Positions 13,563-47,513 of a stretch of 64,000 nt of DNA are shown here, piece by piece. The DNA is from an uncultured Alphaproteobacteria bacterium (GTDB lineage: Bacteria > Pseudomonadota > Alphaproteobacteria > CAAHEQ01 > UBA3637). Location of the stretch: assembly GCA_947586835.1 (NCBI GenBank), contig CANPXT010000008.1, forward strand, positions 443 through 64,442. The letters are read 5' to 3'. Below the pieces are notes generated by a model. It was not told the origin of the DNA. It did not search any database and was given only the letters and a program-made list of their open reading frames with translations. The first letter of the stretch is position 1. The number at the start of each line of letters is the position of its first letter. The position numbers and the translations under genes were made by a program.

Positions 13563-13647
13563 TACCGACTTATGCAAATAAATGCCGGAATGTGCAAATA
13601 AAAACATCTCGTGTTTTTTCGAAAATATGGTATGATGGGTGTAGAAT
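13563..13647 (+). promoter_or_regulatory. Putative activator-dependent promoter of the capsid module
   Basis: TAC/TGC at 13563, 13573, 13583, 13593 (10-bp phase); -10-like TATGAT at 13631, then GTAGAAT; same layout as 17543-17617 and 43519-43593. Confidence 0.55.
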
Positions 13648-13841
13648 CTTCAAAAGTCTCTTTTGCAAGATTTTCGATCTCTGAAATGTTTTATCAGCGG
13701 TCGTTTCAAAGCAAATAAGTCATTTATTTGCTTTTTCTTCCGCCTTTTTTTGAAAATTGAAACGTTTTTTAAAAAAGGTTATGAATTAATCGGTGTTTTT
13801 ACCGGTAAAAAGTTTCATATCAAGCATTTTAAATTTTAACC

Positions 13842-13871
13842 AAAGCGGAATTATCCTTTCTTCCGCTTTTT
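13842..13871 (+). terminator. Terminator-like hairpin in the capsid-gene leader
   Basis: AAAGCGGAA-N10-TTCCGCTTT plus TT; a second hairpin AAAGCAAATAAG/TTTATTTGCTTT at 13708-13734. Confidence 0.55.
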
Positions 13872-13939
13872 GTTATGACATAAAATGTCTTGATATTTTT
13901 TTATTTTTGTAAAAACAATTTTAATGAAAGAGAAAAAAA

Positions 13940-14902
13940 ATGGCATTAGTATATAATGATATTTTTACATCAACCCTTGAAAGTCGGACCAGAACGTTGG
14001 CCGATAACGTAACCGCCAATAATGCTTTGTTGTCCAGATTACGGGAAAAGGGTAAAATCCGTCCTCTTTCCGGCGGTTCCAAAATTATTGAAGAATTGGA
14101 ATACGGGCAGGGTGACGCCGTATGGTATACCGGTTATGATACCATTAACTATACGCCGAAACAATTATTTACTGCGGCTGAATATCAGTTAAAAATGTGT
14201 GCTGTTCCCGTTGCTGTTTCCGGTGAGGAAATATTGAAAAACAGCGGTGAAGAAGCGATGATCGATCTGTTTGAAAAACGTATTGATAACGCAATGAAAA
14301 CCATGACTAATCAAATGGCAAAAGCCGTTTACAGTGACGGAACAGGTTCATCGGGCAAAGAAATCGGCGGATTAAAATTGCTTGTGGCCGATTCACCTTC
14401 TACCGGTACGGTCGGCGGTATCGATCGCGCTGCTTCGGGCAATGAATTTTGGCGCAACAAAGCAACGCAAGTTGAACTTACGCCGGAAAACATTACTGCC
14501 GAAATGAATAAAATGTATCTGTCGTTGTCGCGCGGTACGGATAAACCTGATTTAATTGTGGCTGATGATACGCTTTATACCATGTATGAGCAAATTTTAT
14601 TACCGCAACAACGGTTTTCCGATCCGAAAATTGCCGACAGCGGTTTTGCGACTTTAAAATATAAAGGCGCCGATATTATTTTTGACGGCGGACAAGGTGG
14701 TCATTGCCCCGAAAATCATATGTATTTCTTAAATACGGATTATTTGTATTTGCGTCCGCATAAAGACAGAGATATGAAGGTGATTGAAGGCAATCGGATG
14801 GCAGTTAATCAAGATGCTCTTTATAAAATTATCGGTTGGGCCGGAAACTTAACCATGTCCAATGCGGCGTTGCAGGGTGTTTTAATTAACAACAAAGGCT
14901 AA
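13940..14902 (+). CDS. Phage major capsid protein (podovirus-type)
   Basis: N-terminal ..STLESRTRTLADNVTANNALLSRLREKG..RPLSGG..I, VYSDGTG..GKEIGGL, GTVGGIDRA...FWRN, YFLNTDYL and C-terminal GNLTMSNAALQGVL match a recognisable phage capsid family; 320 aa, intact. Confidence 0.85.
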   Translation: MALVYNDIFTSTLESRTRTLADNVTANNALLSRLREKGKIRPLSGGSKIIEELEYGQGDAVWYTGYDTINYTPKQLFTAAEYQLKMCAVPVAVSGEEILKNSGEEAMIDLFEKRIDNAMKTMTNQMAKAVYSDGTGSSGKEIGGLKLLVADSPSTGTVGGIDRAASGNEFWRNKATQVELTPENITAEMNKMYLSLSRGTDKPDLIVADDTLYTMYEQILLPQQRFSDPKIADSGFATLKYKGADIIFDGGQGGHCPENHMYFLNTDYLYLRPHKDRDMKVIEGNRMAVNQDALYKIIGWAGNLTMSNAALQGVLINNKG

Positions 14903-14930
14903 AATACATAAAATTTATATTTTTAAAAAG

Positions 14931-14970
14931 AATCGGCGGTCGAAGTTTTTCGACCGTCGGTTTTTATTTT
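14931..14970 (+). terminator. Intrinsic terminator after the capsid gene
   Basis: AATCGGCGGTCGAA-loop-TTCGACCGTCGGTT plus T-run. Confidence 0.75.
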
Positions 14971-14999: not shown

Positions 15000-15593
15000 A
15001 TGGATTCTGATTTTTTAACATTTAGAAATGTTATTGAAAATTCAAATATTGAAAAAGATACGTTTGCGCGTTTTTATGATCGTTCGGTCAAAACGAACGA
15101 AATCAATCCGAAAACGGGAGTTCCGATTTTTAAAGATGTGTGTTTTGTGGAAATACGCATTAAAAATAACAATACCGATATTTATGATCAACCGGCAAGT
15201 GAAGAAAAAAAAGCCCGTTTTCCGAATGAATATCGACAGTATTTAAAAGAAAAAGAAACGCGTCCGATCGGGACGGCCCTCGAAAACTTTTCGTTTTTAA
15301 CGGCTTCACAAATCAATACGTTAAAATTTTATCATATTGATACATTGGAAAAATTAAGTGCACTCACACCGGAACAGGCGTCAGATTTAGATATAGTCAA
15401 TGAGTATCATTTGGCGCAGAATTTTTTGGCAGGTGCCAAAAAGCAATTTGAGGTAGCCGGATGGCAAGAAAAGGTGACTCTTTTAAATCAAAAGATTCAA
15501 GAATTGGAAGCAGCGTTAAAAGCGGCGCAACAGAAAAAAACAACGTTCAAAAACACGCACAAGCGTCCTGTAAAAAGAAAAAAAACTGTTTAA
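15000..15593 (+). CDS. Conserved phage protein of the type found after this capsid family (possible HhH-like segment)
   Basis: RFY..SV...G.PIF.D..FVEI, K.RFP.EY..Y, GT.LE...LT.SQI..LK...I.TLE.L pattern; position. Confidence 0.6.
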   Translation: MDSDFLTFRNVIENSNIEKDTFARFYDRSVKTNEINPKTGVPIFKDVCFVEIRIKNNNTDIYDQPASEEKKARFPNEYRQYLKEKETRPIGTALENFSFLTASQINTLKFYHIDTLEKLSALTPEQASDLDIVNEYHLAQNFLAGAKKQFEVAGWQEKVTLLNQKIQELEAALKAAQQKKTTFKNTHKRPVKRKKTV

Positions 15594-15976: not shown

Positions 15977-17422
15977 TTATTTTTTCTTTTTTTTCAGGAC
16001 TTTTTTAGGTTCTTTGACCTGTTCTTTTTCTGCGCCTTCTTCTTTATATTTATAAGTATCTTTGTCGATTTTGACAAATTCTTCTTTCGGCCAATACCGC
16101 CATTCAATAGTCAAATCTTTATCATCGTTTGCGAAAGTAAAATTGGCACAATCGAAAGTTGTTTCTCGACACGCAACCGGATAATTTTTATTCATCCATA
16201 GCGTATCGGTCCAAGCAGGATGTATCAGCTTGACTTTTCGATCATGAGGCATATAGTAATATTGCTGTTTGTCATTTTTAATGATAAATTTTTCCGGAGC
16301 ATAATTTTCCCAGAGCACCATTATTTCGTTGGGACTTATTTGATTAATTTTAGCGTAAATATCTGTTCCGATACGCCGATACCGACCGTCTTTTTCTTTT
16401 TCAATAAAAGCTTGCCAATTCGGATGAACTAACATAAAGTAATCTTTTCCGGAAGGGCAGTTCAGTGCAAAATAATTTTCTAAATATTCTTCCGGAAAAA
16501 CATGTTTTTCAGCATTTCCCGCTATCATTTTTTTAAGAATCGGACATTTTTCGAAAACAGTATATTCGAATTGAATTTCCTCTTTGTTTGGTGTGAAAAA
16601 CATTGAAAAAGCTTCTTTATGCAGGTTTGTGGAATTTGTTTCAATGGCAGTATAGTATTGTTGACCGTTTGTGGCATGAAAACGCATATATGCAACCGCA
16701 TCTGATAAAGAGGCTAATTTTCCGCCGTTTTTAACAAACTGGAACCAAAAATAATAATCTTCGGCAGCGATATAATCATATCGGTATGTAATATTGTGTT
16801 TTTGAACAAATGACCGTTTGAACATTGAGGCAATATTATAGAAGTTATTGTAGAATAATAAATCAACTTCATAATAGCCGGGCATATGTTGAATTTTATA
16901 TTCATCATTGGGCATATTTGTTTCCGGTGTCGGGAATATGGTCATATCCGGTTGTATAATGCGCAAATTTGCCGAAACCGCATCAACTTCCGGATGATCT
17001 TTCAAAAAATGAACTGATTTTGCCAACCGATCAGGCAACGAATAATCATCACTGTCCATAATGGCAATGTAGGTGCCGCGTGCCGCTTTCATACCGCGAT
17101 TGCGCGAAAAAGGAATGCCGCGGTTTGTTTCATTCCGTATCACTTTAATGCGCTTATCCAGCTTACTGTAATCATTTAAAATTTTCGACGTGTTATCCGT
17201 AGAACCGTCATCCACGATAATAAATTCATAATCGGTAAACGTTTGAGATAAAATGGATTCAATGGCGCGTGATACCAAATCTTCCCTGTTATATACGGGC
17301 ATAACGACAGATACGGTCGGATGAAAAGATAATCGATTGATAAAAAATAAAGAAATTAATAAGATAATTATAATGCCCGAAAAAATGTAAGGTTTATATG
17401 AACGTACATGTTTTTTAGTCAT
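15977..17422 (-). CDS. Glycosyltransferase family 2 with N-terminal membrane anchor
   Basis: VSVVMPVYN, IIVDDGSTD, YIAIMDSDD, AEDY motifs; extra C-terminal domain. Confidence 0.92.
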   Translation of the reverse strand: MTKKHVRSYKPYIFSGIIIILLISLFFINRLSFHPTVSVVMPVYNREDLVSRAIESILSQTFTDYEFIIVDDGSTDNTSKILNDYSKLDKRIKVIRNETNRGIPFSRNRGMKAARGTYIAIMDSDDYSLPDRLAKSVHFLKDHPEVDAVSANLRIIQPDMTIFPTPETNMPNDEYKIQHMPGYYEVDLLFYNNFYNIASMFKRSFVQKHNITYRYDYIAAEDYYFWFQFVKNGGKLASLSDAVAYMRFHATNGQQYYTAIETNSTNLHKEAFSMFFTPNKEEIQFEYTVFEKCPILKKMIAGNAEKHVFPEEYLENYFALNCPSGKDYFMLVHPNWQAFIEKEKDGRYRRIGTDIYAKINQISPNEIMVLWENYAPEKFIIKNDKQQYYYMPHDRKVKLIHPAWTDTLWMNKNYPVACRETTFDCANFTFANDDKDLTIEWRYWPKEEFVKIDKDTYKYKEEGAEKEQVKEPKKVLKKKKK

Positions 17423-17542
17423 AAAAAAGGTCTCCTTTTTGAAAAATTTTATTCATTTAAGCATAAAATATAATTTAATGCAAGTTATTTTTGACGAAAA
17501 AAGAAAACGACTGAGATATATGTTCCTGCTAATATTCAAAAA

Positions 17543-17617
17543 TGCCGAAATATACCGTTTTTTGCCGATAAAAACAGTTTCTTTTTTTTATAAAGAAGCG
17601 TATAAATAAAGTATAAT
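17543..17617 (+). promoter_or_regulatory. Putative activator-dependent promoter of the tail/lysis module
   Basis: TGCCGA, TACCGT, TGCCGA at 17543, 17553, 17563; GCGTATAA-N5-GTATAAT at 17598-17617; no -35. Confidence 0.6.
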
Positions 17618-17627
17618 AAGAACGTAT

Positions 17628-17657
17628 AGGTGCTTTTTTCAGAAAAGGCGCTTTTTT
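17628..17657 (+). terminator. Terminator-like hairpin in the tail-module leader
   Basis: GGTGCTTTTT-TCAG-AAAAGGCGCT (with G-U pairs) plus T-run. Confidence 0.5.
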
Positions 17658-17724: not shown

Positions 17725-18453
17725 ATGAGTACCATTTTAGAAATATGTCAAGAGGCAGCCTCTTTGGTTGCCACGCAAAAACCGACGGATTTATTTGATG
17801 AAAACGCACAACAATCTGCCATTTTTTTAAGCATTGCTAAAGACACACTGGACGGACTGCGGCGATACGGAGATTGGCAAGAATTGACAAAGGAAGGAAA
17901 ACTCTTGGTAATTCCCAATAAGCAAGTTTATTATATTCCCGACTTTTGTCCCGATTTTTTTGCTTTAATGCCCAATACCGTTTATATTCGGGATACGGCG
18001 GAAAACGTAATCGGTTCCATCTCACCCGAACAATGGCAACGTGAGCGGTTTTTTAACGGTGGAATTCAGGATTTACAATTTAAAATTCAAAATAATTGTA
18101 TTTGTTTTTTAGAGCCGCCGCGACATCGTTGTCACATTGTTTTTTATTATCGTTCGGCAGTTATTGCATTGAATTTGAAAGAAAATGATGGAAACAGCTG
18201 TGGATGCGCTTATGAAAAAACATCTCTCACGGATAATGATGATATTCCGGTTTTTGATGAATATTTGGTTAAGTTGGGTATTATTTGGCGGTGGTACAAA
18301 CGCAACGGTATGCCGTATGAAGAAGAACTGAACGAATATGAAAAGGAAGTCAAGGCAAAATTTGGCAACGGGTTATGTTTAAAAGACATCTCGTTAATCG
18401 GACGGGTTTTTCAACCATTGAACGGAGGTGTACATGTCGTATCGCATTGTTAA
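17725..18453 (+). CDS. Phage head-tail adaptor / tail tubular protein A-like
   Basis: MSTILEICQEAA start, WQEL.KE, D.D.PVFDEYLVKLGIIWRW.K.NG.PY.EE pattern typical of podoviral adaptors; ATG 17725 after GGAG. Confidence 0.7.
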   Translation: MSTILEICQEAASLVATQKPTDLFDENAQQSAIFLSIAKDTLDGLRRYGDWQELTKEGKLLVIPNKQVYYIPDFCPDFFALMPNTVYIRDTAENVIGSISPEQWQRERFFNGGIQDLQFKIQNNCICFLEPPRHRCHIVFYYRSAVIALNLKENDGNSCGCAYEKTSLTDNDDIPVFDEYLVKLGIIWRWYKRNGMPYEEELNEYEKEVKAKFGNGLCLKDISLIGRVFQPLNGGVHVVSHC

Positions 18454-19993
18454 CAGAAAAAATAAATCGGTTCATTATGTTTTGCCGTGTCCGACAAACG
18501 GGTTAAATGCGCGGGACAGTCGGGATAAAATGGCTCTGACCGACGCGCTTGTCATGGATAATTATTTTCCCTATACCACGCAGGTTTCTTTGCGGCGCGG
18601 ATATAAAAAATATATTGAAGTGCCTTTTACGGTGAAAACACTGGCGGTTTTTAATGCTTCCGCTGTCGGAAACAGTCGTTTGTTTGCCTTTGGTGACGGC
18701 ACGATATGGGATATTTCAAATCCGCAAAAACCATATGATTATCAAAAAAAATTCACCTCGAACGAATGGCGTATCTGCCAATTTAAAAATCGTTTGTTTG
18801 TCGTGAACGGAGTGGATCATCCGCAGGTTTTCATTCCGCATGAAAACGATGTCGGTTCTTGGGAAGATGTTGCTTGGACGGGTGAGGGATTGAATCCGTG
18901 TAAATTAACGGGTATTGCCGCTTCAAAACAACGCTTGTGGTTGATTGAAAATAAAAGTTTAACGGTTTGGTATTCCGAAGGCGTTTCGGAAGTGCAGGGA
19001 AAATTAATTCCGTTTGATTTCAGTACTGTTGCCACGCGTGGCGGATATTTGACGGCCGTCGGCTGTTGGACGCAAGATGGCGGGCAGGGCATTGATGATT
19101 TAACGGTTTTCTTAACTTCCGAAGGGGAAGCATTGGTATATGCGGGTTCTAATCCGAACAGTGCTGATGATTGGCACTTAAAAGGCGTGTATCAAATCAG
19201 TCGTCCGATCGGGCAGAATGCTTTATTGCAGTATCACGGTGATTTGGTTGTTATCAGTGAAGCGGGATATGTTCCGCTTTCAAAAGCATTGGCGTTACAA
19301 AACGCAACCGATGCGCAAATAGCATTCAGCGATCGTATCCAAGAGCTTGTTTTGGATCGCATTCAGAGATATCAAAATAAATACGGCTGGCAGGGTATTA
19401 TTTATCCTCGCGGCGGCTATGCTTTGTTCAATGTGCCGTTGGCAAAGGGCTTTGAGCAACATATTGTCAATACGACAACGGGTGCTTGGTGTCGTTTTAC
19501 GGGTATTGACGCCTATACATGGGCATTGTATCAAACACGCCTGTTTTTCGGCACTAAAAATGCCGTGATGCTGTTTGATGAAGGCTATACAGACGACGGA
19601 ACACCCATTGAAGGGCATGTCGAGCAGGCTTTTTGTGATTTCGGTTCGCCTTATTTGAAAAAAATACAACTTGTTAATGTGCGAACAAAATCTTCCGGAT
19701 ACTATGCTTTGCAAACTTATTGGAATACCGATTATCAAGATGAGCATATCATCAATACCGTTTCTTTTGACATGCCGAGACTTTCTCCGTGGAATGGAAT
19801 GAAGTGGGCATCAAAAGAGCAAAAAACAAAAAGTTACTGGGCAACATTGGCCGGAAAGATTTTTTCACAATGGATCGGGTGCAATGCTACCGGTTTTAAG
19901 TTTAGTTTGGTTTTTCAAACAAAAACAAAAGGAATGTTGATTGATTGGTATGAAACGGGTGTGCGTTATGAACAAGGAACGGGAATTTTATAA
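18434..19993 (+). CDS. Phage tail hub/nozzle (DNA stabilization, gp10-like) protein
   Basis: P.PTNGLNARDS...M...DALVMDNYFP....V.LRRG N-terminus; beta-rich 520 aa with GAWCRFTG; follows the adaptor. Confidence 0.72.
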   Translation: MSYRIVNRKNKSVHYVLPCPTNGLNARDSRDKMALTDALVMDNYFPYTTQVSLRRGYKKYIEVPFTVKTLAVFNASAVGNSRLFAFGDGTIWDISNPQKPYDYQKKFTSNEWRICQFKNRLFVVNGVDHPQVFIPHENDVGSWEDVAWTGEGLNPCKLTGIAASKQRLWLIENKSLTVWYSEGVSEVQGKLIPFDFSTVATRGGYLTAVGCWTQDGGQGIDDLTVFLTSEGEALVYAGSNPNSADDWHLKGVYQISRPIGQNALLQYHGDLVVISEAGYVPLSKALALQNATDAQIAFSDRIQELVLDRIQRYQNKYGWQGIIYPRGGYALFNVPLAKGFEQHIVNTTTGAWCRFTGIDAYTWALYQTRLFFGTKNAVMLFDEGYTDDGTPIEGHVEQAFCDFGSPYLKKIQLVNVRTKSSGYYALQTYWNTDYQDEHIINTVSFDMPRLSPWNGMKWASKEQKTKSYWATLAGKIFSQWIGCNATGFKFSLVFQTKTKGMLIDWYETGVRYEQGTGIL

Positions 19994-20462
19994 TTCGGCA
20001 CCGAGCATTGAACGATTGCATGAGAAAACAAACCGAACAAAGAGTATTTCCGATGTATTGTTTGACAAAGATTTGCTCACGGTGCCGTGGGTATGTCGGG
20101 GATTGGGCATTCCGCCTGATTCTCTGCGTGTTTTTATGGCATTGGCATTTGTTCGAAACGGTGTTTTGTTGGGCAGTTTGCTCTTTCATGACGGTTATGC
20201 CGAAAAAGATGTGTGGTGGACATTATATACCGTTCACCCGCTTTGGTGCACTCGACAATTTTTAAAGAAAGCCTTCCGAGCCGCTTTTGTTGATTTGAAG
20301 TGTCAACGAATTGGTGTGCTTGTGCGGGCAGATAATATCCGATCGCTGAAATTGGTTCGGCGATTGGGATTTCATGAAGAAGGTTGTTTACGTCAATTAT
20401 GTGCGGATAAAACCGACTGTTTGGCTTTCTCGATGTTGAAAGAAGAATGCCGATGGTTGTAA
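19968..20462 (+). CDS. GNAT-fold acetyltransferase of the podoviral tail module (start uncertain)
   Basis: AF..L.C.RI..LVRADN.RSLKLVRRLGF.EEG.LR RimJ-like motif; usual position after the nozzle gene. Confidence 0.75.
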   Translation: MNKEREFYNSAPSIERLHEKTNRTKSISDVLFDKDLLTVPWVCRGLGIPPDSLRVFMALAFVRNGVLLGSLLFHDGYAEKDVWWTLYTVHPLWCTRQFLKKAFRAAFVDLKCQRIGVLVRADNIRSLKLVRRLGFHEEGCLRQLCADKTDCLAFSMLKEECRWL

Positions 20463-20541: not shown

Positions 20542-21213
20542 ATGAGTAAAGCAATCGGATCGGTGCTCGGAACAAATGTCAAAGCAGATACAAGCGCCGC
20601 TCAGAATTATTATAATTATTTAAACGGCATTGATACGTCATCTGCCGATCAGGCGACACAATCAATGGCCGAACAGGCGCGTCAAATGTCGGAAAATCTT
20701 TCTGATTTACCGAATTATCAATTTTCTTTGGATACTTCCGATGAAAGCGCAAAACGTGTGGAAAATGCTGTTTTTCAATCGTATATTGATAAATTGCAAC
20801 CTTTACATGAAAAACAAACGGCTGATTTGGAAACAAAATTGGCTAATCAGGGGTTAAGTGTCGGCAGTCAAGCCTATCAACGCGCCGTTAATGATTTGGC
20901 CGAACAACAAAATGCCGCTTATAATCAGGCAGCCTACAACAGTGTAACTGCCGGACAGGAAGCTTTTAACGATTATTTGAAAAATCAATTATTAGGCGCG
21001 AATTATACCAATACGGCACGGCAGGATTATTTAAACAGCATTTATAAATTGTTGCAAAACGCACCGACAAATTATGAAAAGCAATTAAATATGTATGCCG
21101 CTCAAAACGGTATGGCTCAACAACAGGCAAATGCGCGTCAACAAAGTTTTAACAACACGACCGGTGCCGTTTCCGGACTGTTACAGGCGGGCGGCTTTCT
21201 TGCCGGATTATAA
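20542..21213 (+). CDS. Putative DNA ejection/pilot protein
   Basis: Gln/Asn/Ala-rich, LANQGL..GS.AY.RA motif, Gly-rich hydrophobic ends; AAGGAG RBS; position. Confidence 0.6.
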   Translation: MSKAIGSVLGTNVKADTSAAQNYYNYLNGIDTSSADQATQSMAEQARQMSENLSDLPNYQFSLDTSDESAKRVENAVFQSYIDKLQPLHEKQTADLETKLANQGLSVGSQAYQRAVNDLAEQQNAAYNQAAYNSVTAGQEAFNDYLKNQLLGANYTNTARQDYLNSIYKLLQNAPTNYEKQLNMYAAQNGMAQQQANARQQSFNNTTGAVSGLLQAGGFLAGL

Positions 21214-21227: not shown

Positions 21228-21821
21228 ATGAGACAATATACATCGACGAGTGATATTATCAATATCGCTAAAATGGCGCCAAAGCCTTTGGATATGACAG
21301 CTTATGCGGGATTACCGCAATCTTTTATCAGCGGCTATATGCAAGGGCAACGTGCGCAACAAAATCAACAAAAAATACAATCTGTAACGCCGAATTATAT
21401 GCAAAAAAGCAGTGAACAAAATATAAGAATGTACAAGCTTAATGATGAGCCAGAGAAAAAATATTTTGACGCATCACATCGTACGGGTTCTCAAAAATGG
21501 CAACAAGCCGATTCAAAAACACCTTTTGAGGAAACTCCTGATCCGTTGTTGGATTATATACCCGTCAATCAACGAGAATCTTCCGATTTTTTATCGGTCA
21601 ATGATAACGGAAATGCCGTTTTGACATCAACGCCGATTTCTGCGACGCATGCTTTACCGAATGGGTCTCTTCCGGAAAATAACACACCTTATTTTGAAAA
21701 TCAGGCATTTGACGGCGTTAATTTTATGCAAACAGTTATGAGCCCCGATGTTAACATGACGGCGGATCAGCGTCGGGCAAAATTGCTTCGAGACAGCGGT
21801 TATCTTTCGTTGAATTATTAA
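21228..21821 (+). CDS. Putative ejection/internal virion protein
   Basis: SFISGYMQGQRAQQNQQ pattern; AAGGAG RBS; position in the module. Confidence 0.45.
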   Translation: MRQYTSTSDIINIAKMAPKPLDMTAYAGLPQSFISGYMQGQRAQQNQQKIQSVTPNYMQKSSEQNIRMYKLNDEPEKKYFDASHRTGSQKWQQADSKTPFEETPDPLLDYIPVNQRESSDFLSVNDNGNAVLTSTPISATHALPNGSLPENNTPYFENQAFDGVNFMQTVMSPDVNMTADQRRAKLLRDSGYLSLNY

Positions 21822-21861: not shown

Positions 21862-22101
21862 ATGTCAAAATCAATGGATCGATTTTATGAACTTTTGCAT
21901 AAGACAATTACAGGTATTTTAATACCGGTCGTTGTTTATTTGATGGGGGAAATCCACGACATGCAAAAAGAGGTGTCAATTTTTGAACTGCGCGTTGCAA
22001 AAGAGGCCGTACAATATGCCATGCGAACGGATATTGTTCGGGTCGAAACAAAAATTGATGAGCTTAAAACACTTATTATTCAAGAGATTAAGAAAAAATG
22101 A
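21862..22101 (+). CDS. Small membrane protein, putative holin-like
   Basis: One hydrophobic segment plus coiled coil (RVETKIDELK); overlaps the lysozyme start (ATGA). Confidence 0.55.
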   Translation: MSKSMDRFYELLHKTITGILIPVVVYLMGEIHDMQKEVSIFELRVAKEAVQYAMRTDIVRVETKIDELKTLIIQEIKKK

Positions 22102-22526
22102 CATCTGCCGTAACAACTGCTTTAAAACAACGTGTTTTGCGTCATGAAGGGTTGCGTTTAAAAGTTTATACCTGCCCGCGCGGTAAATTAACGATTGGAA
22201 TAGGGCGTAATTTGGAGGATAAAGGTATTACGCGCGCCGAAGCTTTTTATTTGCTTGAAAATGACTTAAAACACGCCGAATGTGATTGTCAAAACGCTTT
22301 TCAGTGGTTTGAAAAATTAGATACCGTTCGTCGCGGTGTTGTGATTGAAATGGTTTTTAATTTGGGTTTCCAAGGTTTTTTGGGCTTTTGTCGATTGATA
22401 AAAGCATTGACGATACAGGATTTTGATGCCGCCGCGCGCGAAATGTTAAACAGTCGTTGGGCGGTACAAGTCGGACATCGTGCCGAAAAACTGGCAAAAA
22501 TTATGCGAACGGGAAAGGAGGTGTGA
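22098..22526 (+). CDS. Phage lysozyme/endolysin (GH24, T4-lysozyme-like)
   Basis: HEGLRLKVY.CPRGKLTIGIGRNL; EMVFNLG; AAREMLNSRWAVQVG.RA..L. Confidence 0.92.
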   Translation: MTSAVTTALKQRVLRHEGLRLKVYTCPRGKLTIGIGRNLEDKGITRAEAFYLLENDLKHAECDCQNAFQWFEKLDTVRRGVVIEMVFNLGFQGFLGFCRLIKALTIQDFDAAAREMLNSRWAVQVGHRAEKLAKIMRTGKEV

Positions 22527-22527
22527 T

Positions 22528-22671
22528 ATGAAGGAACGGTTATTAGATTATTTAAAGAACAATCGAAAAAAAATCATTACTTTTTTGATTGCCGGTATTT
22601 TGGCTGCTGCCGGTATTGCAGCAGACGGTACGGTAATTGAAAACGCAATCGGTATGATTTTAGGATTTTAA
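22528..22671 (+). CDS. Small membrane protein after the endolysin (lysis accessory?)
   Basis: AAGGAGG RBS; MKERLLDYLKNNRKKIITFLIAGILAAAGIA... Confidence 0.6.
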   Translation: MKERLLDYLKNNRKKIITFLIAGILAAAGIAADGTVIENAIGMILGF

Positions 22672-22742
22672 AATTTTGAGCTTAAAAAGGGAATATATCG
22701 GTTAATCGGTATTTGTTTTTATGGCATTTAATGCTCTTTTAG

Positions 22743-23024
22743 GCGTTCGAGTCTCCGGCTTCACCATAAAAAAAGACAGACATGAAGTCTGTCTTTTTTT
22801 GGTGGGCGCTTGAGAGACTCGCATTGATAAATATCAATGCTTCGTGCAACAGCATCTAAATAAAAACATCGGTTTACATAAAGCAAACCTCGTTTTTATA
22901 AGATGATGTTGGGCTGGCAATGAAAAAAGCAAAGCAATTTGCTTTTTTCAAAAGCGCCCTCTTACGCGTTCGAGTCTCTGGCTTCACCATAAAAAAAAGA
23001 CAGACATGAAGTCTGTCTTTTTTT

Positions 23025-23047
<23 letters not shown>
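22743..23047. repeat. Duplicated ~80-bp palindromic unit derived from the tRNA-Lys 3' end
   Basis: GCGTTCGAGTCTC.GGCTTCACCATAAAAAAAGACAGACATGAAGTCTGTCTTTTTTTGGTGGGCGC at 22743 and 22966. Confidence 0.85.
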
Positions 23048-23296: not shown

Positions 23297-23527
23297 ATGT
23301 CATACATTTCTAAAATGTTTACTCCTTTTCAACTACCCGACGGCAGTGAAGCTGCCTGTTCGCGGGACATCGATGCCTATTTGCGTCGCACCGGGCTGAC
23401 GGTGGCATCGGATTATTCGCCCGAAACGCTCAAAGCGATTCGGTTTGCTCGGGAAAAGGCGATGCGAGAGTCGCTTTTCGCATCTTTTATTCATCAATAT
23501 CAAAGGAAAATATGGAATGAAAAATAA
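23297..23527 (+). CDS. Small phage head-module protein
   Basis: AAAGGA RBS; PF.LPDGS....SRD..AYLRRTG resembles the small protein between portal and scaffold in related phages. Confidence 0.55.
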   Translation: MSYISKMFTPFQLPDGSEAACSRDIDAYLRRTGLTVASDYSPETLKAIRFAREKAMRESLFASFIHQYQRKIWNEK

Positions 23528-25239: not shown

Positions 25240-25248
25240 GGAGAAAAA

Positions 25249-39761: not shown

Positions 39762-40466
39762 TTATCTGTCGTTGAAAGAATTTGAAACAAGTTTTTTGAC
39801 ATCAAGCGACTTTGTTTTTTTGCCGGATTTATAATCTTTTTGTGCTTGATAAGTTTCTAAAACGGAAACAATTTTTTGATACCCCGATTCTTTGGCAATA
39901 TCAAGTGGTGTTTGTCCGAATGCGTTTCGAACATTCATATCGGCACCGGCTTCCAGTAAAATAGGAATTGCTTTGATGACATTACAAGAAACAGCTTTGT
40001 GTAATGGCGTACAATTCATATTATCCCGATGATTAACATCAGCTTTTGCTTTAATAAGCATTTTTAAAGCCGCCGGAGTATCAAGCCAGACAAATGAATG
40101 CAGTAAAGTTTCGCCCTCATTATTTTGGGCATTGACATCAGCGCCTGCTTTTAAAAACGTTTCCGCCAATCCGATTGTATAATATGTAAACAAATGCGCC
40201 GGTGTGTTGCCGTTGACGTCTTTAGCATTAATATCATTACCGGTTTTGAGAAGCATATCTGTCATTTTATTCAATTCGCGCGTGGGGGTAACATTTCCTT
40301 CAATGCTTTCCGGCCCATTATAGGAAGCTAAAAAATGCAAAGCGGTTGCATGTTCATAATTATCTGTATCATTCGGGTTTGCGCCGTTTTTAATGAAATT
40401 TTTAACTGCTTTTAAATCGGCATACGAACACGCTTGATTTAAATCTTGATAGAACAATTGCTCCAT
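39762..40466 (-). CDS. Ankyrin-repeat protein
   Basis: GNTPAH, GETLLH, CTPLH, GQTPLD repeats. Confidence 0.92.
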   Translation of the reverse strand: MEQLFYQDLNQACSYADLKAVKNFIKNGANPNDTDNYEHATALHFLASYNGPESIEGNVTPTRELNKMTDMLLKTGNDINAKDVNGNTPAHLFTYYTIGLAETFLKAGADVNAQNNEGETLLHSFVWLDTPAALKMLIKAKADVNHRDNMNCTPLHKAVSCNVIKAIPILLEAGADMNVRNAFGQTPLDIAKESGYQKIVSVLETYQAQKDYKSGKKTKSLDVKKLVSNSFNDR

Positions 40467-41012: not shown

Positions 41013-41498
41013 ATGTCACACAGATTAATTGATTATCAATTGCTATTTGCTTATGAAAATAAAGATCGGCAGGAAATAAATGAATTAAAAGCCATTGGAG
41101 CATCGGATTCGATGAGGGTTTGGTGTGAAGAAAGCAAAATCTCGGCTTTGATGTTGGCATTTTTGTATAATGATATAACGGCTGCCAAAGTACTTCTTAA
41201 AATGGGTGCCGATATTAATCTTCAAGATAAAAACGGGGAAACGCCTTTAATGTATGCCGTCAGAGAGAAAAATGTCTCAGCCGTCAAACTTTGTCTTCAA
41301 AACGGTTCCAAAATCGATATTCAAAACAATAACGGAGAAACGGCATGTGATATTGCTCGGTATATGGACTGTTCTCAAACCGTTAAAATATTATCAGAAC
41401 AGGAAAAAACAGTAAAGCAGGCCCGTCAGGTGGCGCAACATTCAACCGCAAGCATTCAAAAAAATATTCGAAGGAAAGGAAAAGAACAATGCCGATAA
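41013..41498 (+). CDS. Ankyrin-repeat protein
   Basis: GADINLQDKNGETPLMYA; IDIQNNNGETACDIA. Confidence 0.9.
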   Translation: MSHRLIDYQLLFAYENKDRQEINELKAIGASDSMRVWCEESKISALMLAFLYNDITAAKVLLKMGADINLQDKNGETPLMYAVREKNVSAVKLCLQNGSKIDIQNNNGETACDIARYMDCSQTVKILSEQEKTVKQARQVAQHSTASIQKNIRRKGKEQCR

Positions 41499-43457: not shown

Positions 43458-43518
43458 ATGAAATAATTTTAGCAGAATCCGGATCATTTGACATAATAAC
43501 AAGTTTTTTTCCTTTTTT

Positions 43519-43593
43519 TGCCGAAAAATGCTGATTTTTACCGAAAATACCTCTTTTCTTTTTTCCGAAAAGGGCGTATAAAGAGTGTATCAT
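43519..43593 (+). promoter_or_regulatory. Putative activator-dependent promoter of the packaging module
   Basis: TGCCGA, TGCTGA, TACCGA at 43519, 43529, 43539; GCGTATAA-N5-GTATCAT at 43574-43593; spacing identical to 17543-17617. Confidence 0.6.
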
Positions 43594-43607
43594 CAGTTAA
43601 ATTTATC

Positions 43608-43637
43608 AGCGTTGCTTTTATAAGCAACGTTTTTTTT
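43608..43637 (+). terminator. Terminator-like hairpin in the packaging-module leader
   Basis: AGCGTTGCTT-TTAT-AAGCAACGTT with T8 run, before the RBS. Confidence 0.65.
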
Positions 43638-43656: not shown

Positions 43657-43902
43657 ATGAAAGAACCGCAAGCCCTTTCAGACAGGCTGTTTATTCGCTT
43701 GGAACAGCCGGACGCTTCACTGATTTTAACAAATAATATCAATCATCGGAACATAGGAACGATTGTCAGTGTCGGACCTTTGGTTAAGAGTGTGAAAACA
43801 GGGGATAAAGTCCTGTTTCATATTTTCGATGATTTACCGACTTATGATCCCGATGTTGTTGTCATTCGGGAAAAAAGCTTATTAGGGATATTTAAACAAT
43901 AA
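43657..43902 (+). CDS. GroES-like co-chaperonin (phage-type)
   Basis: L.DRL.I, G.IVSVGP.V..VK.GD.VLF, V.IRE..LLGI. Confidence 0.7.
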   Translation: MKEPQALSDRLFIRLEQPDASLILTNNINHRNIGTIVSVGPLVKSVKTGDKVLFHIFDDLPTYDPDVVVIREKSLLGIFKQ

Positions 43903-43924: not shown

Positions 43925-45820
43925 ATGCAAAAGACACAATATGAAACGTCTCAATCCGTGAGTCGTTGGCTGGATCGTATTCATCGTGCCGAACGGGTTT
44001 ATGAGCCGTATTTTGACTTAATTCGAAGAACACGCGAGGCCTATAAATCTCAGAACGGCGATATAACGACTGCGTATAATATTTTCTGGTCAGGAGTAGA
44101 AACACAAAAACCGTTTCTTTATTTCAAACGCCCTGACGCATATGTGGATCGTATTAATAAAGTTGCCACGCCGGCAGAGCAGGTTGCCTGTAAAATTTTG
44201 GAACGTGCTTTAAATTGGAACATAAATGCCTTTGATTTCGACGGTGCGGCAAAATATGCCCGAAATGATTTTCTTATTTCCGGTTGCGGTATATTATTTG
44301 AAGCTTATACGCCCGAATTTCAAACGATTTCTTTGCCGGACGGCAATGTGTGTGACGTTATTACAAATGAAACGGTGGTTACAAACTATTGGGATCCGTG
44401 TTTCTTTTTGGCAGATACCGATCATGTGGGTGTTTGGGAAGATGTACAGTGGATTGCGCGAAAACTTTTGTTAAATCGTCAAAAAATTGCAGACGAGTTT
44501 GGTCAAAAAGCGGTCGATAAATTAAATTTCAAACCCTCAGACACGCCGGAAAAAAATGTGTGTGTTTATGAAATATGGGATAAACAAAGCAAAGCCGTAT
44601 ATTGGATTTCACCTCACTGTCCCGATAGTTTTTTAAAGAAGATCGGTGATCCTTATCATTTAAGCGGTTTTTTCCCGTGTCCGAAACCGCTTTACGCTAC
44701 TTTAACAAACGATAGCCTTATTCCGGTTCCCGATTACAGTATGATTTCCCGTATGATTGACGAACTCAACGGCATTGTGGAACGGATGCGGTTAACCATG
44801 CAGGCTATTAAGGTAAGTGGTGTTTATGACGGAGCTTTTCATCGATTGGGGGATATTTTTGAAAAAGATGTCACTCTTGTTTCGCTGGCGGATTTTGATC
44901 GCTTGAAAGAAAACGGCGGTATTCGCGGCGTGATTGATTTTATTCCGATTGATCAATATATCACGGCATTAGAGCAATTAGCGCGTCGACGGGATGATGT
45001 GGTCAATCGCATTTTTGAAATTACCGGCGTTTCCGATATTATGCGCGGCAATTCTAACGTAACGGAAACGGCAACGGCGGTTGAACGAAAAACAAATTTC
45101 GGCACGCTGCGCAATCAAGATCGGCAAAATGATATGCAACGCTTTATTGCCGACATCTATCGCATTAAGGCGGAAATTATTTGTGAAAGATGTTCGCCGG
45201 AAATGTTGGCTTCGTTTGTGAATCCGTCTGAAAACACGACGCCCGAAACCATCGCGCAGGCCATTTCTATTTTAAAGCATCATAAGTTGGAAGGCATGTT
45301 ATTGCATGTGGAAAGCAACGGGGTTGTGAATGCCGATAACGAGGCTTTGAAAACCTTGAAAGGTGTTGAAACCATTACGTGTTTAATCAGCGATGCGTTG
45401 CCGATTGTATCGATGCAACCGTTATTGTTACCGCTTTATCAACGGATGATTATGGCGGTTGTGGCGCAAATGCCGCATACGCGTTTGTTTGAAAGCGTGA
45501 TTGATAAAACGTTCACCGCCATTCAATCCGATTTGGCTCAAACACCTTCAAAACAGGCCTTGGCGTCAAGTCAATTAAAGCGTGAAAAGGACAAACGGGA
45601 AGCGCTGGAAGCACAACTTGGCGATATGCAACGTTTTAATCAAAAAATAACGTGTTTAAAATTGGCGCAAACCTATGAAATTGAAAAAGATAAAATTAAG
45701 CTGGAAGAAGAAAAGAATCGGTTGAAAGCGCTTGAATTAAATATGCGTATGAAAGAAAACGAATCGGCAAAAGCGCCGACATCTTTACAAAAATCAATAC
45801 CGCAGCAAATTGAAAAATAA
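43925..45820 (+). CDS. Phage portal protein (podovirus-type)
   Basis: YNIFWS.VET.KP.LY...P, VYEIWDK, FFPCPKPLYATLTNDSLIPVPDY, EITGVSDIMRG...ETATA...K; C-terminal coiled-coil barrel. Confidence 0.87.
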   Translation: MQKTQYETSQSVSRWLDRIHRAERVYEPYFDLIRRTREAYKSQNGDITTAYNIFWSGVETQKPFLYFKRPDAYVDRINKVATPAEQVACKILERALNWNINAFDFDGAAKYARNDFLISGCGILFEAYTPEFQTISLPDGNVCDVITNETVVTNYWDPCFFLADTDHVGVWEDVQWIARKLLLNRQKIADEFGQKAVDKLNFKPSDTPEKNVCVYEIWDKQSKAVYWISPHCPDSFLKKIGDPYHLSGFFPCPKPLYATLTNDSLIPVPDYSMISRMIDELNGIVERMRLTMQAIKVSGVYDGAFHRLGDIFEKDVTLVSLADFDRLKENGGIRGVIDFIPIDQYITALEQLARRRDDVVNRIFEITGVSDIMRGNSNVTETATAVERKTNFGTLRNQDRQNDMQRFIADIYRIKAEIICERCSPEMLASFVNPSENTTPETIAQAISILKHHKLEGMLLHVESNGVVNADNEALKTLKGVETITCLISDALPIVSMQPLLLPLYQRMIMAVVAQMPHTRLFESVIDKTFTAIQSDLAQTPSKQALASSQLKREKDKREALEAQLGDMQRFNQKITCLKLAQTYEIEKDKIKLEEEKNRLKALELNMRMKENESAKAPTSLQKSIPQQIEK

Positions 45821-45861
45821 AGTTTTTAAAGGAAAAGCGGTCAAAAACGAAAGGGAAAACC

Positions 45862-46134
45862 ATGAGAAAAGAAAATAAAACAACCGCTTTGCCGGCAGTG
45901 CCGAGCGAACCTTTAATTGACTATTCGGTACGCGACAGTTTTTTAAAGCTGTGCCATATTCAGGAAACGGCATTGGCGCTGGAACCCAAGCCCGATTTTA
46001 CGGCAGCTTTAAAGTCGGAAGAATTGAAAGGCAAATTGTGCGGCTTATATCCGGATAAGAAAAAACAAGTTCTCGAACAAGAATCTTATCCGGTTATTGC
46101 CGTTCAGTTTGTAGAAAAAGGAGATGTTAAGTGA
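45862..46134 (+). CDS. Terminase small subunit (minimal; no N-terminal HTH)
   Basis: AALKSEELKGKLCGLY.DK oligomerisation motif; C-terminal VIAVQFV strand; overlaps the TerL start (GTGA). Confidence 0.68.
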   Translation: MRKENKTTALPAVPSEPLIDYSVRDSFLKLCHIQETALALEPKPDFTAALKSEELKGKLCGLYPDKKKQVLEQESYPVIAVQFVEKGDVK

Positions 46135-47513
46135 AAAGTGCTTCAAAAAGCGATTCGGTCACGATTGAGCAAAAGAATCGGCATATTATTCAAATTCCGT
46201 CTGTTTTTAAGCCGCTGTTAAGTTTGAAAAAGCGCATTAAACTTTTTTACGGCGGACGGGCAGGCGGTAAATCTTATGCTTTTGCCGACAGTTTGTTAAT
46301 TAAAGCGCGTATGCAAAAATTGTTTATTATTTGTTTGCGCGAAATTCAAAACTCCATTAAAGATTCGGTACACAAATTGCTTGCCGATCGCATTCAAGCA
46401 CATCAGTTGAGCGATTATCGGGTGAGTGATATGAAAATTGAAAACTTAATGACGGGGAGCACCTTTGTTTTCAAGGGACTTCGTGATCAGGACAGTGATA
46501 AAATCAAGTCATTGGAGGGGGCGGATATTGCGTGGATTGAAGAAGGACAGCGAATCTCAAAAAAATCGTGGGAAATATTAGAGCCGACCATTCGAAAGAA
46601 AGATTCGGAAATTTGGATTTCCATGAACAGGGAAACACCGACCGATCCGATTTGGGTTGCGCTTTTTAATCAGCCCGACAGTTATGTTTTCAAGCAAAAA
46701 GTGAATTATACGGATAATCCGTTCTGTCCCGAAGAAATGATAGAATTAGCTGAGCGGTGTCGGGAAAAAAATGCGGTCGATTATGCGCATATTTGGCTTG
46801 GCGAACCCAAAGCGGGCGGTGATGAAAAACTCATTCCGTCCGTTTTTATCATTCAAGCGCAGGAACGGGGAAAAGTGGCGGGAATCGGGCAAAGTTTACC
46901 GGTCGGGAGTGATGAAAATCAGCTGATTATCGGGCTGGACATTGCGCGTTTCGGTGATGATGCCACGGTTTTTTGTTTTCGCACGGGCGGTAAATGTGTT
47001 TTTAAGGTATATCACAAAAAAAACACGGTTGAAACGGCGAATTTGGCGGTGCATTATCTTCAAACGCTCCATCCGGCGCGGTTATTTTTAGATATCGGCG
47101 GATTGGGTGCAGGTGTTTTTGATATATTAATCGCGCGCGGTTTTGCAACGGTTGTACGCGGTGTTAATTTTGGCGAAAAAGCACGACTTTCAGACAGATA
47201 TGCCAACAAGCGGGCGGAAATGTGGGATTCGGTTCGTTTGTTTTTAAGCGAATCTGATCAGGCGCTCTTACCGCCGGATTCGGATTTGTGTGATGACTTA
47301 TGTGCCGTGAATAAAAGCTATGATAAACACGGGCGCCTGCTATTGGAAGATAAAGTGGCATTAAGGCGGCATTTGGGGCGCTCAACCGATCGCGGTGATG
47401 CTTTGGCGCTCACGTTTGCCCGTCCGATGGGGAACATATGTGCGCAACCTGAAAATCAAGGATTAACGCTGGAAGAATTGTTTAAAAATCAGTCTTTTAA
47501 AAGAACATGGTAA
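46131..47513 (+). CDS. Terminase large subunit (PBSX-like)
   Basis: Walker A YGGRAGGKS; CLREIQNSI.DSV; IKSLEG..IAWIEEG; nuclease GLDIARFGDD; S.DRGDALALTF. Confidence 0.95.
   Translation: MKSASKSDSVTIEQKNRHIIQIPSVFKPLLSLKKRIKLFYGGRAGGKSYAFADSLLIKARMQKLFIICLREIQNSIKDSVHKLLADRIQAHQLSDYRVSDMKIENLMTGSTFVFKGLRDQDSDKIKSLEGADIAWIEEGQRISKKSWEILEPTIRKKDSEIWISMNRETPTDPIWVALFNQPDSYVFKQKVNYTDNPFCPEEMIELAERCREKNAVDYAHIWLGEPKAGGDEKLIPSVFIIQAQERGKVAGIGQSLPVGSDENQLIIGLDIARFGDDATVFCFRTGGKCVFKVYHKKNTVETANLAVHYLQTLHPARLFLDIGGLGAGVFDILIARGFATVVRGVNFGEKARLSDRYANKRAEMWDSVRLFLSESDQALLPPDSDLCDDLCAVNKSYDKHGRLLLEDKVALRRHLGRSTDRGDALALTFARPMGNICAQPENQGLTLEELFKNQSFKRTW

Follow-up and report, generated by a model that had tools for sequence, protein, structure and literature searches.

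The stretch of DNA analysed here, hereafter the window, measures 64,000 nucleotides (nt) and represents almost the whole of contig C8 of a metagenome-assembled genome (MAG) of 1.32 Mb, which comprises 29 contigs and is 83% complete (the source genome). From position 13562 to position 47513, it carries a full Mx8/P22-type podovirus gene set, referred to below as the element, whose genes are all on the + strand and are distributed over four blocks. The set covers head, portal, terminase, adaptor, nozzle, fibres and lysis. Phage genes were called on the open reading frames (ORFs) of the window with PHROG profiles. Comparisons were made with 20 other species genomes of the same genus (congeners, labelled with G-numbers), with loci carrying relatives in IMG/VR and elsewhere (L-numbers) and with contigs from an independent study (X5). 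The congener most often referred to is G011, a different species. The genes and associated features of the blocks are listed here.

13940-14902 (+), major capsid protein (MCP) of the Mx8/Brucella-phage type (phrog_9953, 2e-105)
14928-14965 (+), strong terminator-like hairpin 3' of the capsid gene, with a 17-pair stem and a T-run
15000-15593 (+), virion-module protein, always next after the capsid gene (phrog_20268, 1e-7)
17725-18453 (+), head-to-tail adaptor, a tubeA-type tail protein (phrog_6013, 6e-30)
18428-19993 (+), tail hub/nozzle, a P22 gp10-like beta-propeller of 521 aa (phrog_5107, 9e-78; model and Foldseek)
19941-20462 (+), GNAT acyl-CoA N-acyltransferase within the virion module (phrog_4470, 2e-27)
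20542-21213 (+), internal virion/ejection-type protein (phrog_6121 'virion structural protein', 7e-16; position conserved)
21228-21821 (+), variable protein with no family match (37% identity to G011; ratio of nonsynonymous to synonymous substitution rates, dN/dS, 0.385)
21862-22101 (+), holin-like protein of 79 aa with one transmembrane segment, as judged from its translation
22098-22526 (+), lysozyme/endolysin (phrog_7 endolysin, 5e-15, and others)
22480-22671 (+), small protein of 63 aa after the lysozyme, with a C-terminal transmembrane segment predicted from the translation; possible lysis accessory
23297-23527 (+), small conserved protein ahead of the scaffold in every layout (homologues)
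23445-24353 (+), scaffold-like acidic protein with an uncertain start (position; no family match)
24442-25239 (+), tail fibre with a collar domain (phrog_19618 / phrog_523, 2e-19)
25249-25596 (+), fibre-associated small protein, kept beside the fibres (phrog_1084, 1e-9)
25593-28037 (+), long, fast-evolving fibre (fibre B), probable receptor binder (no family match)
28041-28385 (+), small protein after the fibres, possible fibre assembly factor (position; no family match)
43657-43902 (+), phage-type GroES co-chaperonin (phrog_3188, 2.5e-7)
43925-45820 (+), portal protein (phrog_12082, 7e-109)
45862-46134 (+), short TerS-like protein, the stop of which overlaps the TerL start (position, conservation and model)
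46131-47513 (+), large terminase TerL, with ATPase and nuclease (phrog_3717, 5e-51; PF03237 over the cut-off)

An initial annotation of this DNA had placed phage genes at these positions, which is borne out by the PHROG matches, the nozzle model and the TerL motifs. As for the names it had proposed, the nozzle is confirmed by a structural match to P22 gp10, whereas scaffold, fibre B, 'chaperone' and TerS rest on position or conservation and have no family match. The nozzle is the signature of a podovirus. The AlphaFold model (predicted local distance difference test score 62.5 overall and roughly 65-93 across residues 60-390) was compared with the PDB using Foldseek, and the best match is P22 gp10 (8u10, E 1.4e-11, template modelling score 0.52), with further matches to the podovirus tail hubs Sf6 gp8, Pa223, Pan3 and VP1. 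The PHROG label 'amidase' for 18428-19993 is wrong, as the model matches podovirus tail hubs. Sequence-profile searches of the PDB with the nozzle, the adaptor, the MCP and the 15000-15593 protein returned nothing meaningful. In TerL, which is the only Terminase_6N match in the source genome, the Walker A, Walker B and nuclease acidic residues are invariant in 23 aligned sequences.

The remaining genes are characterised mainly by their positions. The 15000-15593 protein is syntenic in every layout seen (dN/dS 0.073 against G011), the GNAT gene is syntenic in compact clusters and phage relatives, and the GroES gene always adjoins the portal gene. For the adaptor, the ATG at 17725, which lies behind a GGAG, is a likelier start than the TTG at 17695 of the ORF list. 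The stop of the holin-like ORF overlaps the lysozyme start, and the ORFs of 21862-22671 probably form a lysis cassette. The loci of 12 congeners encode homologues of the small 23297-23527 protein with 40-86% identity, and MT835830.1 encodes one with 40%. The scaffold gene sits between the portal and capsid genes in compact clusters, and its product shows 68% identity to that of G011, with a dN/dS of 0.19. Fibre B shows 50% identity to G011 over the first 364 residues, with a dN/dS of 0.20, and its matches in G005 are repeat-rich. The gene of the 28041-28385 type is present in two copies in G013.

The TerS-like ORF, of 77-112 aa with a conserved core, lies directly 5' of TerL in the 11 genomes aligned (10 of the genus and G097). 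At the TerS position of G001, G005, G013 and G017, the ORF is longer or of another type. The model of the protein (90 aa) consists of a two-helix hairpin and a flexible tail, with no N-terminal helix-turn-helix part. Similarly, the protein aligns with the gp3-type TerS of relatives (125-195 aa) over the C-terminal tail alone, the N-terminal part being absent. In a fold search, eight of the top 50 matches, all non-significant, are named terminase small subunit. The protein is compatible with a TerS stripped of its DNA-recognition domain, a loss that has been reported for the gene transfer agents (GTAs) RcGTA and FpGTA.

Three of the blocks are preceded by copies of a shared region, which is a candidate for their control.

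13562-13668 (+), degenerate copy 1 of the control region, 5' of the capsid block: direct repeats of the CCGA type and a -10-like element, GTATGAT
17526-17657 (+), control region copy 2: direct repeats, GCGTATAAATAAAGTATAAT and a leader terminator at 17628-17653
43505-43636 (+), control region copy 3: direct repeats, GCGTATAAAGAGTGTATCAT and a leader terminator at 43608-43631

Approximately 130 nt upstream of the adaptor block align with the region upstream of the GroES-portal block, as well as with the G011 and G016 orthologues and with the region before the first gene, encoding the MCP, in G009 and G010. The region comprises three to four direct repeats, [AG]CCGA[AT]A[AT]AT, about 10 bp apart, then a T-rich stretch followed by GnGTATAAA-N4-GTATNAT and, 15-20 nt further on, a hairpin followed by a T-run. 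The window contains the exact motif GCGTATAAA-N4-GTATNAT at two sites, each of them 5' of an element block (0.29 expected; 3 of 100 shuffles reach two), and the whole 1.32 Mb genome contains no others. When the source genome was searched with a 130-nt nhmmer profile, three significant matches were obtained, all before element blocks: 43505-43636 (E 1.2e-32) and 17526-17657 (E 3e-26), both of which are in the model, and 13562-13668 (E 3.9e-4), which is independent of it. The next best match has an E-value of 0.05. The profile also matches before the MCP gene in G001, G011, G015, G016 and G017. A loose two-repeat CCGA regular expression was rejected as unspecific, with 44 matches that fall mostly within genes; specificity is achieved by the long profile alone. 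The leader hairpins at 17628-17653 and 43608-43631 were called terminator-like by a scan, and a hairpin with a T-run is kept in 7 of 13 sites, the stem sequences differing between species and between copies.

In lambdoid phages, the late genes lie behind a promoter that is followed at once by a terminator (PR'-tR'), and they are controlled by Q antitermination. The arrangement described here is similar, as a promoter is followed within a few tens of nt by an intrinsic terminator ahead of a morphogenesis/lysis operon. It differs in that three copies stand before separate blocks, with three to four direct repeats upstream, and in that no Q-like protein was identified. We infer that an activator and/or an antiterminator may turn on all blocks together, in which case the duplicated control region would show how a broken-up operon can remain co-regulated.

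Between the blocks lie a glycosyltransferase gene, a tRNA-Lys(ctt) gene and 15 kb of housekeeping genes. The host genes include those for an Uup-like ABC-F protein, a MetK-like protein, proline iminopeptidase, ankyrin proteins, L27/L21, DusA, Bcp and HydF. The HdeD gene follows TerL, and the GyrA gene lies downstream of the set. The separation by host genes that had been noted initially thus stands for the tRNA and the housekeeping genes; it does not stand for the glycosyltransferase as a plain host gene, as this gene may belong to the element.

15977-17422 (-), family-2 glycosyltransferase (GT2), with NCBIfam GT2 matches below the cut-offs

GT2 evolves fast, with 56% identity to G011 compared to 97% for GyrA. 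Homologues adjoin the element in G005, G013, G010, G001 and G096, in differing gene orders. Given this repeated association, the gene may have been retained for modifying surface glycans (conversion type), co-evolving with the fibres. GT2 also stands beside the element at L023:12440-13057, L024:7496-8113, L026:10556-10900, L034:13648-13938 and L198:476-1093.

As the initial annotation had stated, the window contains no integrase or replication gene, and the two PF00589 genes of the source genome are on other contigs. Further, no integrase/transposase, replication module, contiguous immunity region or att sites were found in the window or in the compact form of the element described below. The composition is host-like, as had also been stated: the GC content of the element genes is 0.35-0.44 compared to 0.408 +/- 0.039 for the host, the GC content at third codon positions is within the host range, and the codon frequencies of the element correlate with those of the host with r = 0.960 (host subsets: mean 0.975, minimum 0.879). 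In G011, the order of all blocks and host genes is identical to that of the window. The X5 contigs (~99.7% identical) bridge the bamE-MCP, GT2-adaptor, tRNA-g23270 and fibre-uup junctions, and the X5 depth at these four junctions is flat, at 9-18, except in the bin holding the tRNA gene.

Element genes are present in nearly all congeners, with portal matches in 19/20, capsid matches in 19/20 and TerL matches in 18/20. The full-length matches have no internal stops, and there is normally one match per genome. G015 (76% complete) has a capsid match only, and the capsid of G004 is split across two contigs. G008 has two TerL matches of similar identity on two contigs, and G005 has a second TerL, 34% identical, which was taken as a separate prophage. 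The element was found in none of 59 genomes of the other 15 genera of the same order. In a second order, which includes G098, 154 of 283 species genomes have the capsid; almost all of them give a single match, and one contains a TAG. Taken together (19 + 154), uncultured gut Alphaproteobacteria with element genes amount to at least 173 species-level genomes.

A scan of species-representative genomes yielded 115 relatives, of which 80 were kept; 72 of these 80 have capsids at least 65% identical and are mostly MAGs titled uncultured (Alpha)proteobacteria. The record titles of the relatives point to the guts of rabbits, ruminants and humans. Six of the 72 contigs (L070, L073, L078, L082, L089 and L108; capsids 65-71% identical) are in bins titled Bacteroidaceae, Eubacteriales, [Ruminococcus] gnavus or Acutalibacteraceae, which is likely due to mis-binning. 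L089 and L108 also encode the large virion proteins of phage-like relatives. The nearest named phages are Mx8-like podoviruses, namely Myxococcus Mx8/Mx9, Bradyrhizobium ppBjS10J-1, Stenotrophomonas BUCT555 and Brucella phages, with identities of 31-47% for the capsid and 25-29% for the portal. Much closer is MT835830.1, an unannotated record of 17 kb in which the whole set is contiguous (69% identity for the capsid, 54% for the portal). The IMG/VR loci L203-L220 and L226 and GenBank MT835830.1 are family members filed as viral contigs or 'Bacteriophage sp.', and several of these members of virus collections show just the replication-less compact cluster in the available stretch. The literature search found no paper linking MT835830.1 to a virome.

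The element forms a single cluster of ~17-21 kb in G005 and G013 (on contigs of 361 and 514 kb), in G098, G099, G100 and MT835830.1, and in most IMG/VR relatives. The order of this compact form is (TerS)-TerL-GroES-portal-small-scaffold-MCP-15000 homologue-adaptor-nozzle-GNAT-virion protein-fibres-lysozyme. In G013, PgpA lies directly next to the cluster at one end and GT2 and HdeD at the other, with no integrase or replication gene in between; the layout of G005 is the same. In line with the initial annotation, no complete prophage was found in close species, the G013 compact form being flanked by PgpA and HdeD. G009 and G010 exhibit an intermediate order, MCP...lysozyme-small-scaffold-GroES-portal-TerS-TerL. 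The window and G011 correspond to this intermediate order with GT2, tRNA-Lys, the fibres and 15 kb of host genes interposed between the pieces. Dispersal is therefore derived, in one clade, and the ancestral form is a compact cluster flanked by host genes.

True (pro)phage relatives are represented by L212, L216, L217, L219 and L220 of IMG/VR and by a second copy in G100 (C16). Upstream of their gp3-type TerS, these phage relatives variously encode a DUF6291 replication-initiator-like protein, a DNA methylase and a DUF2303 protein, according to a scan that covered L200, L212 and L220. Between the virion protein and the fibres, two large proteins (~330 and 510-760 aa) are encoded in 7/7 replication-competent relatives (these six and L203); in the window, their site is occupied by the variable ORF 21228-21821. 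Partial homologues of the large virion proteins are found elsewhere in MT835830.1 and in G100:C37. In the other order, TerS is preceded by a divergent S24 CI/LexA-like gene, which was not found in the genus of the window, and by a conserved ORF of ~160 aa (alignment A9), which has no PHROG or Pfam match. G100 holds two copies of the module: C16 (L200), with a replication-type module and the two large virion proteins, and C37 (L201, a contig of 8.8 kb), without them. This host may thus harbour both a phage and a domesticated relative of it.

The inheritance of the element was assessed by comparing a GyrA tree of 25 genomes with the portal, TerL and MCP trees. The clades common to GyrA and the element are G000+G011+G016(+G015), G001+G017, G019 and G009(+G010), and further G020, G007, G002+G018(+G006), G014, G004, G008 and G003+G012. 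Agreement between the element trees and that of gyrA extends to 18 of 20 rows. The exception is G005/G013, whose elements group with those of the other order (portal support 99), whereas GyrA places the hosts inside the genus. Between the window and G011, dS is alike for element and host genes. The dS of the element likewise follows that of gyrA in every other pair for which both are available, with values of 0.22-0.74 vs 0.38 (G005-G013), 0.18-0.42 vs 0.50 (G001-G017) and 0.16-0.31 vs 0.26 (G003-G012).

Each of the 17 element ORFs compared with its G011 counterpart is intact, and dN/dS lies at 0.04-0.39 (at most 0.14 for the hallmark genes): 0.043 for the MCP, 0.050 for the adaptor, 0.055 for the lysozyme, 0.083 for the nozzle, 0.122 for the portal and 0.135 for TerL. 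The fibres show dN/dS values of 0.14-0.20 and identities of 50-74%. For host genes of the same pair, the values are 0.027 (gyrA), 0.077 (uup), 0.109 (dusA) and 0.126 (hydF). Across six within-genus pairs (window-G011 and five others), dN/dS is 0.01-0.2, with the exception of one groES value (76 codons; 0.41), and the ranges are 0.025-0.051 for the MCP, 0.030-0.136 for the portal, 0.020-0.165 for TerL and 0.029-0.083 for the nozzle. In a seventh pair, from the other order (G097-G100), dS is saturated for most genes. Within the genus, the element thus co-diverges with its host under strong purifying selection.

These results bear on what the initial annotation had expected of a domesticated set. 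Homologues are neither patchy nor pseudogenised (19/20, 19/20 and 18/20 congeners, with no internal stops), and dN/dS is far below 1 in the six within-genus pairs, also for the one groES value of 0.41. Single-copy conservation holds for nearly all genomes, G008 and G005 having two TerL matches, and a phylogeny congruent with that of the host is observed for the major clades, though not for G005/G013.

Based on these observations, we propose, with a probability of roughly 60%, that the element is a domesticated Mx8/P22-type podovirus morphogenesis, packaging and lysis set (a viriform), which is chromosomally inherited and kept functional by selection. The domestication is well supported: phage structural and packaging genes are resident without replication or integration genes, and they are vertically inherited under purifying selection, with the exception of G005/G013. 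A GTA-type function would be the most likely use of the putative particles of these uncultured bacteria. In such a scheme, a signal acting at the repeat boxes and/or an antiterminator acting at the leader terminators would switch on the blocks jointly in some cells. Capsids would assemble on the portal and the scaffold, assisted by the GroES homologue, and TerL, together with a short TerS without a recognisable DNA-binding part, would fill the heads with cellular DNA by a headful mechanism. The later steps are the least certain: adaptor, nozzle and fibres would complete short-tailed particles, holin and lysozyme would release them, and the particles might bind kin cells via the fast-evolving fibres and deliver DNA that recombines, as in a GTA. 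The ComEC and DprA genes are intact in the source genome; both are common genes.

Several observations weigh against this proposal. Regarding control, 6 of 13 sites have no clear hairpin and T-run near the promoter-like element, including the MCP copies of the G000 group; the copy before the MCP gene is degenerate, and the profile search found no copy before the fourth block (23297-28385). The profile gave matches in one clade of the genus only, and none in the second clade, in G005/G013 or in members of the other order; no regulator for the element was found. The TerS-like protein shows weak profile similarity to gp3-type TerS (hhalign probability 27%), and its fold search gave no match at E <= 0.001 (E >= 0.18). 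The two large virion proteins are missing at their position in the window, G013 and G099 and were not found in the source genome (83% complete) by tblastn at E 1e-3; their loss could mean impaired DNA delivery. The ORF of ~160 aa upstream of TerS in the other order was matched in 0/21 genus genomes, in a search without a positive control. G006, which is 98% complete, has a portal match and no MCP or TerL match. Finally, there is no sign of a reduced capsid, as the MCP length and the scaffold are as in phage relatives of 39-53 kb, and the classical GTA criterion of a particle too small for its own genes may not hold.

The phylogeny raises an additional difficulty. Approximately unbiased (AU) tests, run after the tree had been seen, reject monophyly of the elements of the genus (portal p 0.032, MCP p 0.0008). 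Compared with the window, GyrA is 81-97% identical within the genus and 62-64% identical between orders, whereas for the MCP (69-76%) and the portal (47-53%) the distance between orders does not exceed that within the genus. The grouping of G005/G013 and these flat distances show that the element has passed from one host lineage to another on at least one occasion, which a selfish element might do, and that it has since been inherited vertically.

A bolder reading takes the full-size head into account and is put forward tentatively, being possible rather than probable. The element would represent an undescribed viriform family of at least two orders of gut Alphaproteobacteria (in humans, ruminants and rabbits), in which a full-size head carries the whole compact locus and its neighbours, that is, a 'self-transducing GTA', and in which scattered operons form one regulon through copies of a late promoter and leader terminator and a putative antiterminator. 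If true, this would explain both the strict co-divergence within the genus and the jumps between orders. If the ancestral capsid size has been kept, the whole span of 34 kb could fit one headful. This qualifies the initial statement that the set could not excise without taking ribosomal genes along: the blocks are indeed separated by L21/L27, DusA and other host genes, but they could still be carried together in a single headful.

The set might also be domesticated for another purpose, its particles acting as PBSX-like killers of competitors, as a means of lysis or of releasing public goods, or as a decoy against phages, with the packaged DNA being incidental and not productively delivered; we consider this unlikely. 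PBSX, a defective prophage particle of Bacillus, is chromosomal and non-replicating, packages host DNA, is released by lysis and is a myovirus-like killer particle; it differs from the element by its myovirus-like form and its unrelated genes. It has also been named as a GTA-like system (PMC12946183). A killer or decoy role would be in keeping with the conserved lysis cassette, with the rapid evolution of the fibres and of the element-linked GT2, a pattern that targeting or surface arms races would produce, and with the lack, in the window, G013 and G099, of the two large virion proteins of 7/7 replication-competent relatives. However, this lack is weak evidence where it depends on a tblastn search for fast-evolving proteins in an 83%-complete genome, and a homologue of the large virion proteins persists elsewhere in MT835830.1 and G100:C37. 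An IVP-A-like protein and GNAT are retained, and the invariant TerL motifs (23 sequences), together with dN/dS values of 0.02-0.17 for portal and TerL, indicate that packaging itself is under selection.

Equally improbable in our view is a selfish, replication-less transducing element with a head of ~40-50 kb that packages its own locus (17-21 kb or 34 kb) and flanking host DNA and spreads by homologous recombination. Transfer would explain more easily a distribution of 19/20 in one genus, 0/59 in 15 sister genera and 154/283 in another order. The size of the named relatives' genomes (39-53 kb), the grouping of the G005/G013 element genes with the other order, the rejection of one clade by the AU tests and a between-order element divergence not exceeding that within the genus point in the same direction, as does the divergent upstream CI/LexA-like S24 repressor of the other order, which is like a prophage switch. 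Within the genus, nevertheless, the trees are congruent and dS matches that of the host, so that transfer must be rare relative to speciation. Codon use is fully host-like, and dispersal among housekeeping genes with a copied control region would be hard to maintain if the element moved as one piece.

It is very improbable that the blocks derive from a decaying prophage which genome rearrangement in a shrinking symbiont has broken into neutral remnants. The small genome (1.32 Mb), the shuffled gene order among species and the lack of a demonstrated regulator or function would fit, but 17 ORFs are intact with dN/dS values of 0.04-0.39 against G011, further pairs behave likewise, intact orthologues are present in 18-19/20 species despite dS values of up to ~1, catalytic motifs are invariant and control regions are conserved. 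An assembly or binning artefact, in which phage contigs would be chimerically joined to host DNA in a MAG of 29 contigs and 83% completeness, hardly deserves consideration: misassembly, a concern of the initial annotation, is excluded because G011 shares the split layout and X5 contigs bridge the four junctions, and the compact form lies inside contigs of 361 kb and 514 kb.

Taking the element as a domesticated podovirus set, we compared it with known systems. RcGTA, whose type is found in Rhodobacter, Caulobacter and Dinoroseobacter, resembles it in being chromosomal, replication-less, multi-locus, vertically inherited and under purifying selection in Alphaproteobacteria. The small terminase of RcGTA has been reported to be without a DNA-binding domain (PMC6854486; PMC12946183), and the TerS-like protein of the element is also without an N-terminal part. 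The two are, however, not homologous, and the element has a podoviral adaptor and nozzle where RcGTA has a siphoviral tail. Furthermore, the scaffold gene is retained, the lysis genes are inside the set, the capsid is possibly full-size, and a putative control by repeat boxes, promoter and leader terminator is present, whereas RcGTA is controlled by the CtrA/GafA circuit. The RcGTA family is characterised by an HK97-type capsid and prohead protease, a tape measure and a tail protein with a GTA_TIM domain. Its markers PF05065 (HK97-type capsid) and PF13547 (GTA_TIM) gave no match in the source genome (83% complete), Caulobacter being positive for both. The set had been described initially as podoviral rather than of the RcGTA type and as an independent domestication, and both views agree with its Mx8/P22-type origin and with this lack of RcGTA-type genes.

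To our knowledge, cases in which phages were independently domesticated as GTAs are few, and none was known in gut commensals until 2026. In that year, FpGTA of Faecalibacterium, a podovirus-like GTA of a gut commensal, was published with experimental support and described as the first of that morphology (PMC12946183). As this system is already in print, a podovirus-like GTA architecture is not unprecedented, and the element would be a further, non-homologous domestication. FpGTA comprises a TerS without an obvious DNA-binding domain, TerL, portal, scaffold and MCP; fibres and lysis genes form a second operon at a distance of ~125 kb, and conservation of the set extends throughout the genus (PMC12946183). 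Its particles of ~40 nm, with ~9 kb of DNA, and their proteomics were shown experimentally (PMC12946183). It differs from the element by its Firmicute host and by its operons of 10.5 kb (operon I) and 5.5 kb (operon II) (PMC12946183), compared to an ancestral cluster of 17-21 kb here. The likeness between the two is one of gene content as described. Our literature search found no prior description of the element; the supplementary tables of PMC12946183, listing hosts of GTA-like packaging, are outside the scope of that search, and the passages of the paper it covered contain no mention of gut Alphaproteobacteria (PMC12946183).

Mx8 and the Brucella phages Tb and Pr share homologous capsid, portal, tubeA and tubeB/nozzle proteins with the element, but they are complete phages of 38-53 kb. 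The compact relatives retain the P22-type order of Mx8 and Pr, TerS-TerL-portal-scaffold-MCP-tubeA-tubeB-internal proteins-fibres, whereas the window shows a rearranged order. Mx8 carries out generalised transduction (PMC10386132). Compared to the closer, uncultured phage relatives, the element is without DUF6291, the DNA methylase, DUF2303, a gp3-type TerS and the two large virion proteins. True phages, compact replication-less clusters with a CI-like repressor and dispersed clusters provide a series in which the steps of domestication can be compared directly. If the particles move host DNA, they would constitute a route of gene flow in gut microbiomes and a source of bacterial reads in viromes.

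Some observations concern the samples and the surroundings of the element. No 16S gene was found in the source genome (83% complete). The sequencing runs containing the window sequence are bulk gut metagenomes only, with no RNA data set among them, and the coverage in the raw-read runs X6 and X7 is almost confined to the tRNA gene. Upstream of the capsid block, the ORFs 8475-9626 (383 aa) and 9565-11568 (667 aa) were considered as relocated ejection proteins and rejected, as they have no PHROG match. The ORF 7732-8220 bears a weak pilin resemblance at its N-terminus. It belongs to a family of ~160 aa with a weak pilin-like N-terminus that is multi-copy and scattered around element blocks, with six places in L038 and further members in L030, L031 and L035.

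Between the lysozyme block and tRNA-Lys, there is a tandem duplication of ~224 bp (22733-22821 and 22956-23045). In both copies, a stretch resembling a tRNA 3' end lies on the + strand, together with a bidirectional hairpin terminator and the 3' end of tRNA-Lys, which is encoded on the minus strand and of which the first copy carries a 3' fragment only. The duplication resembles the trace that an earlier integration or excision at tRNA-Lys would leave. The 64 kb of the window encode at least six ankyrin-repeat proteins (32614-34926, 39762-40466, 41013-41498, 48508-49620, 52064-52909 and 52948-53823), which, together with HydF, hint at an anoxic habitat on or within eukaryotic cells, either of a protist or of the host. 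Finally, the MetK-like gene (30253-31263, -) is short (336 aa), and its product scores 174 bits against a cut-off of 309. With 92% identity in G011 and a dN/dS of 0.11, it encodes a divergent yet maintained S-adenosylmethionine synthetase-like protein.

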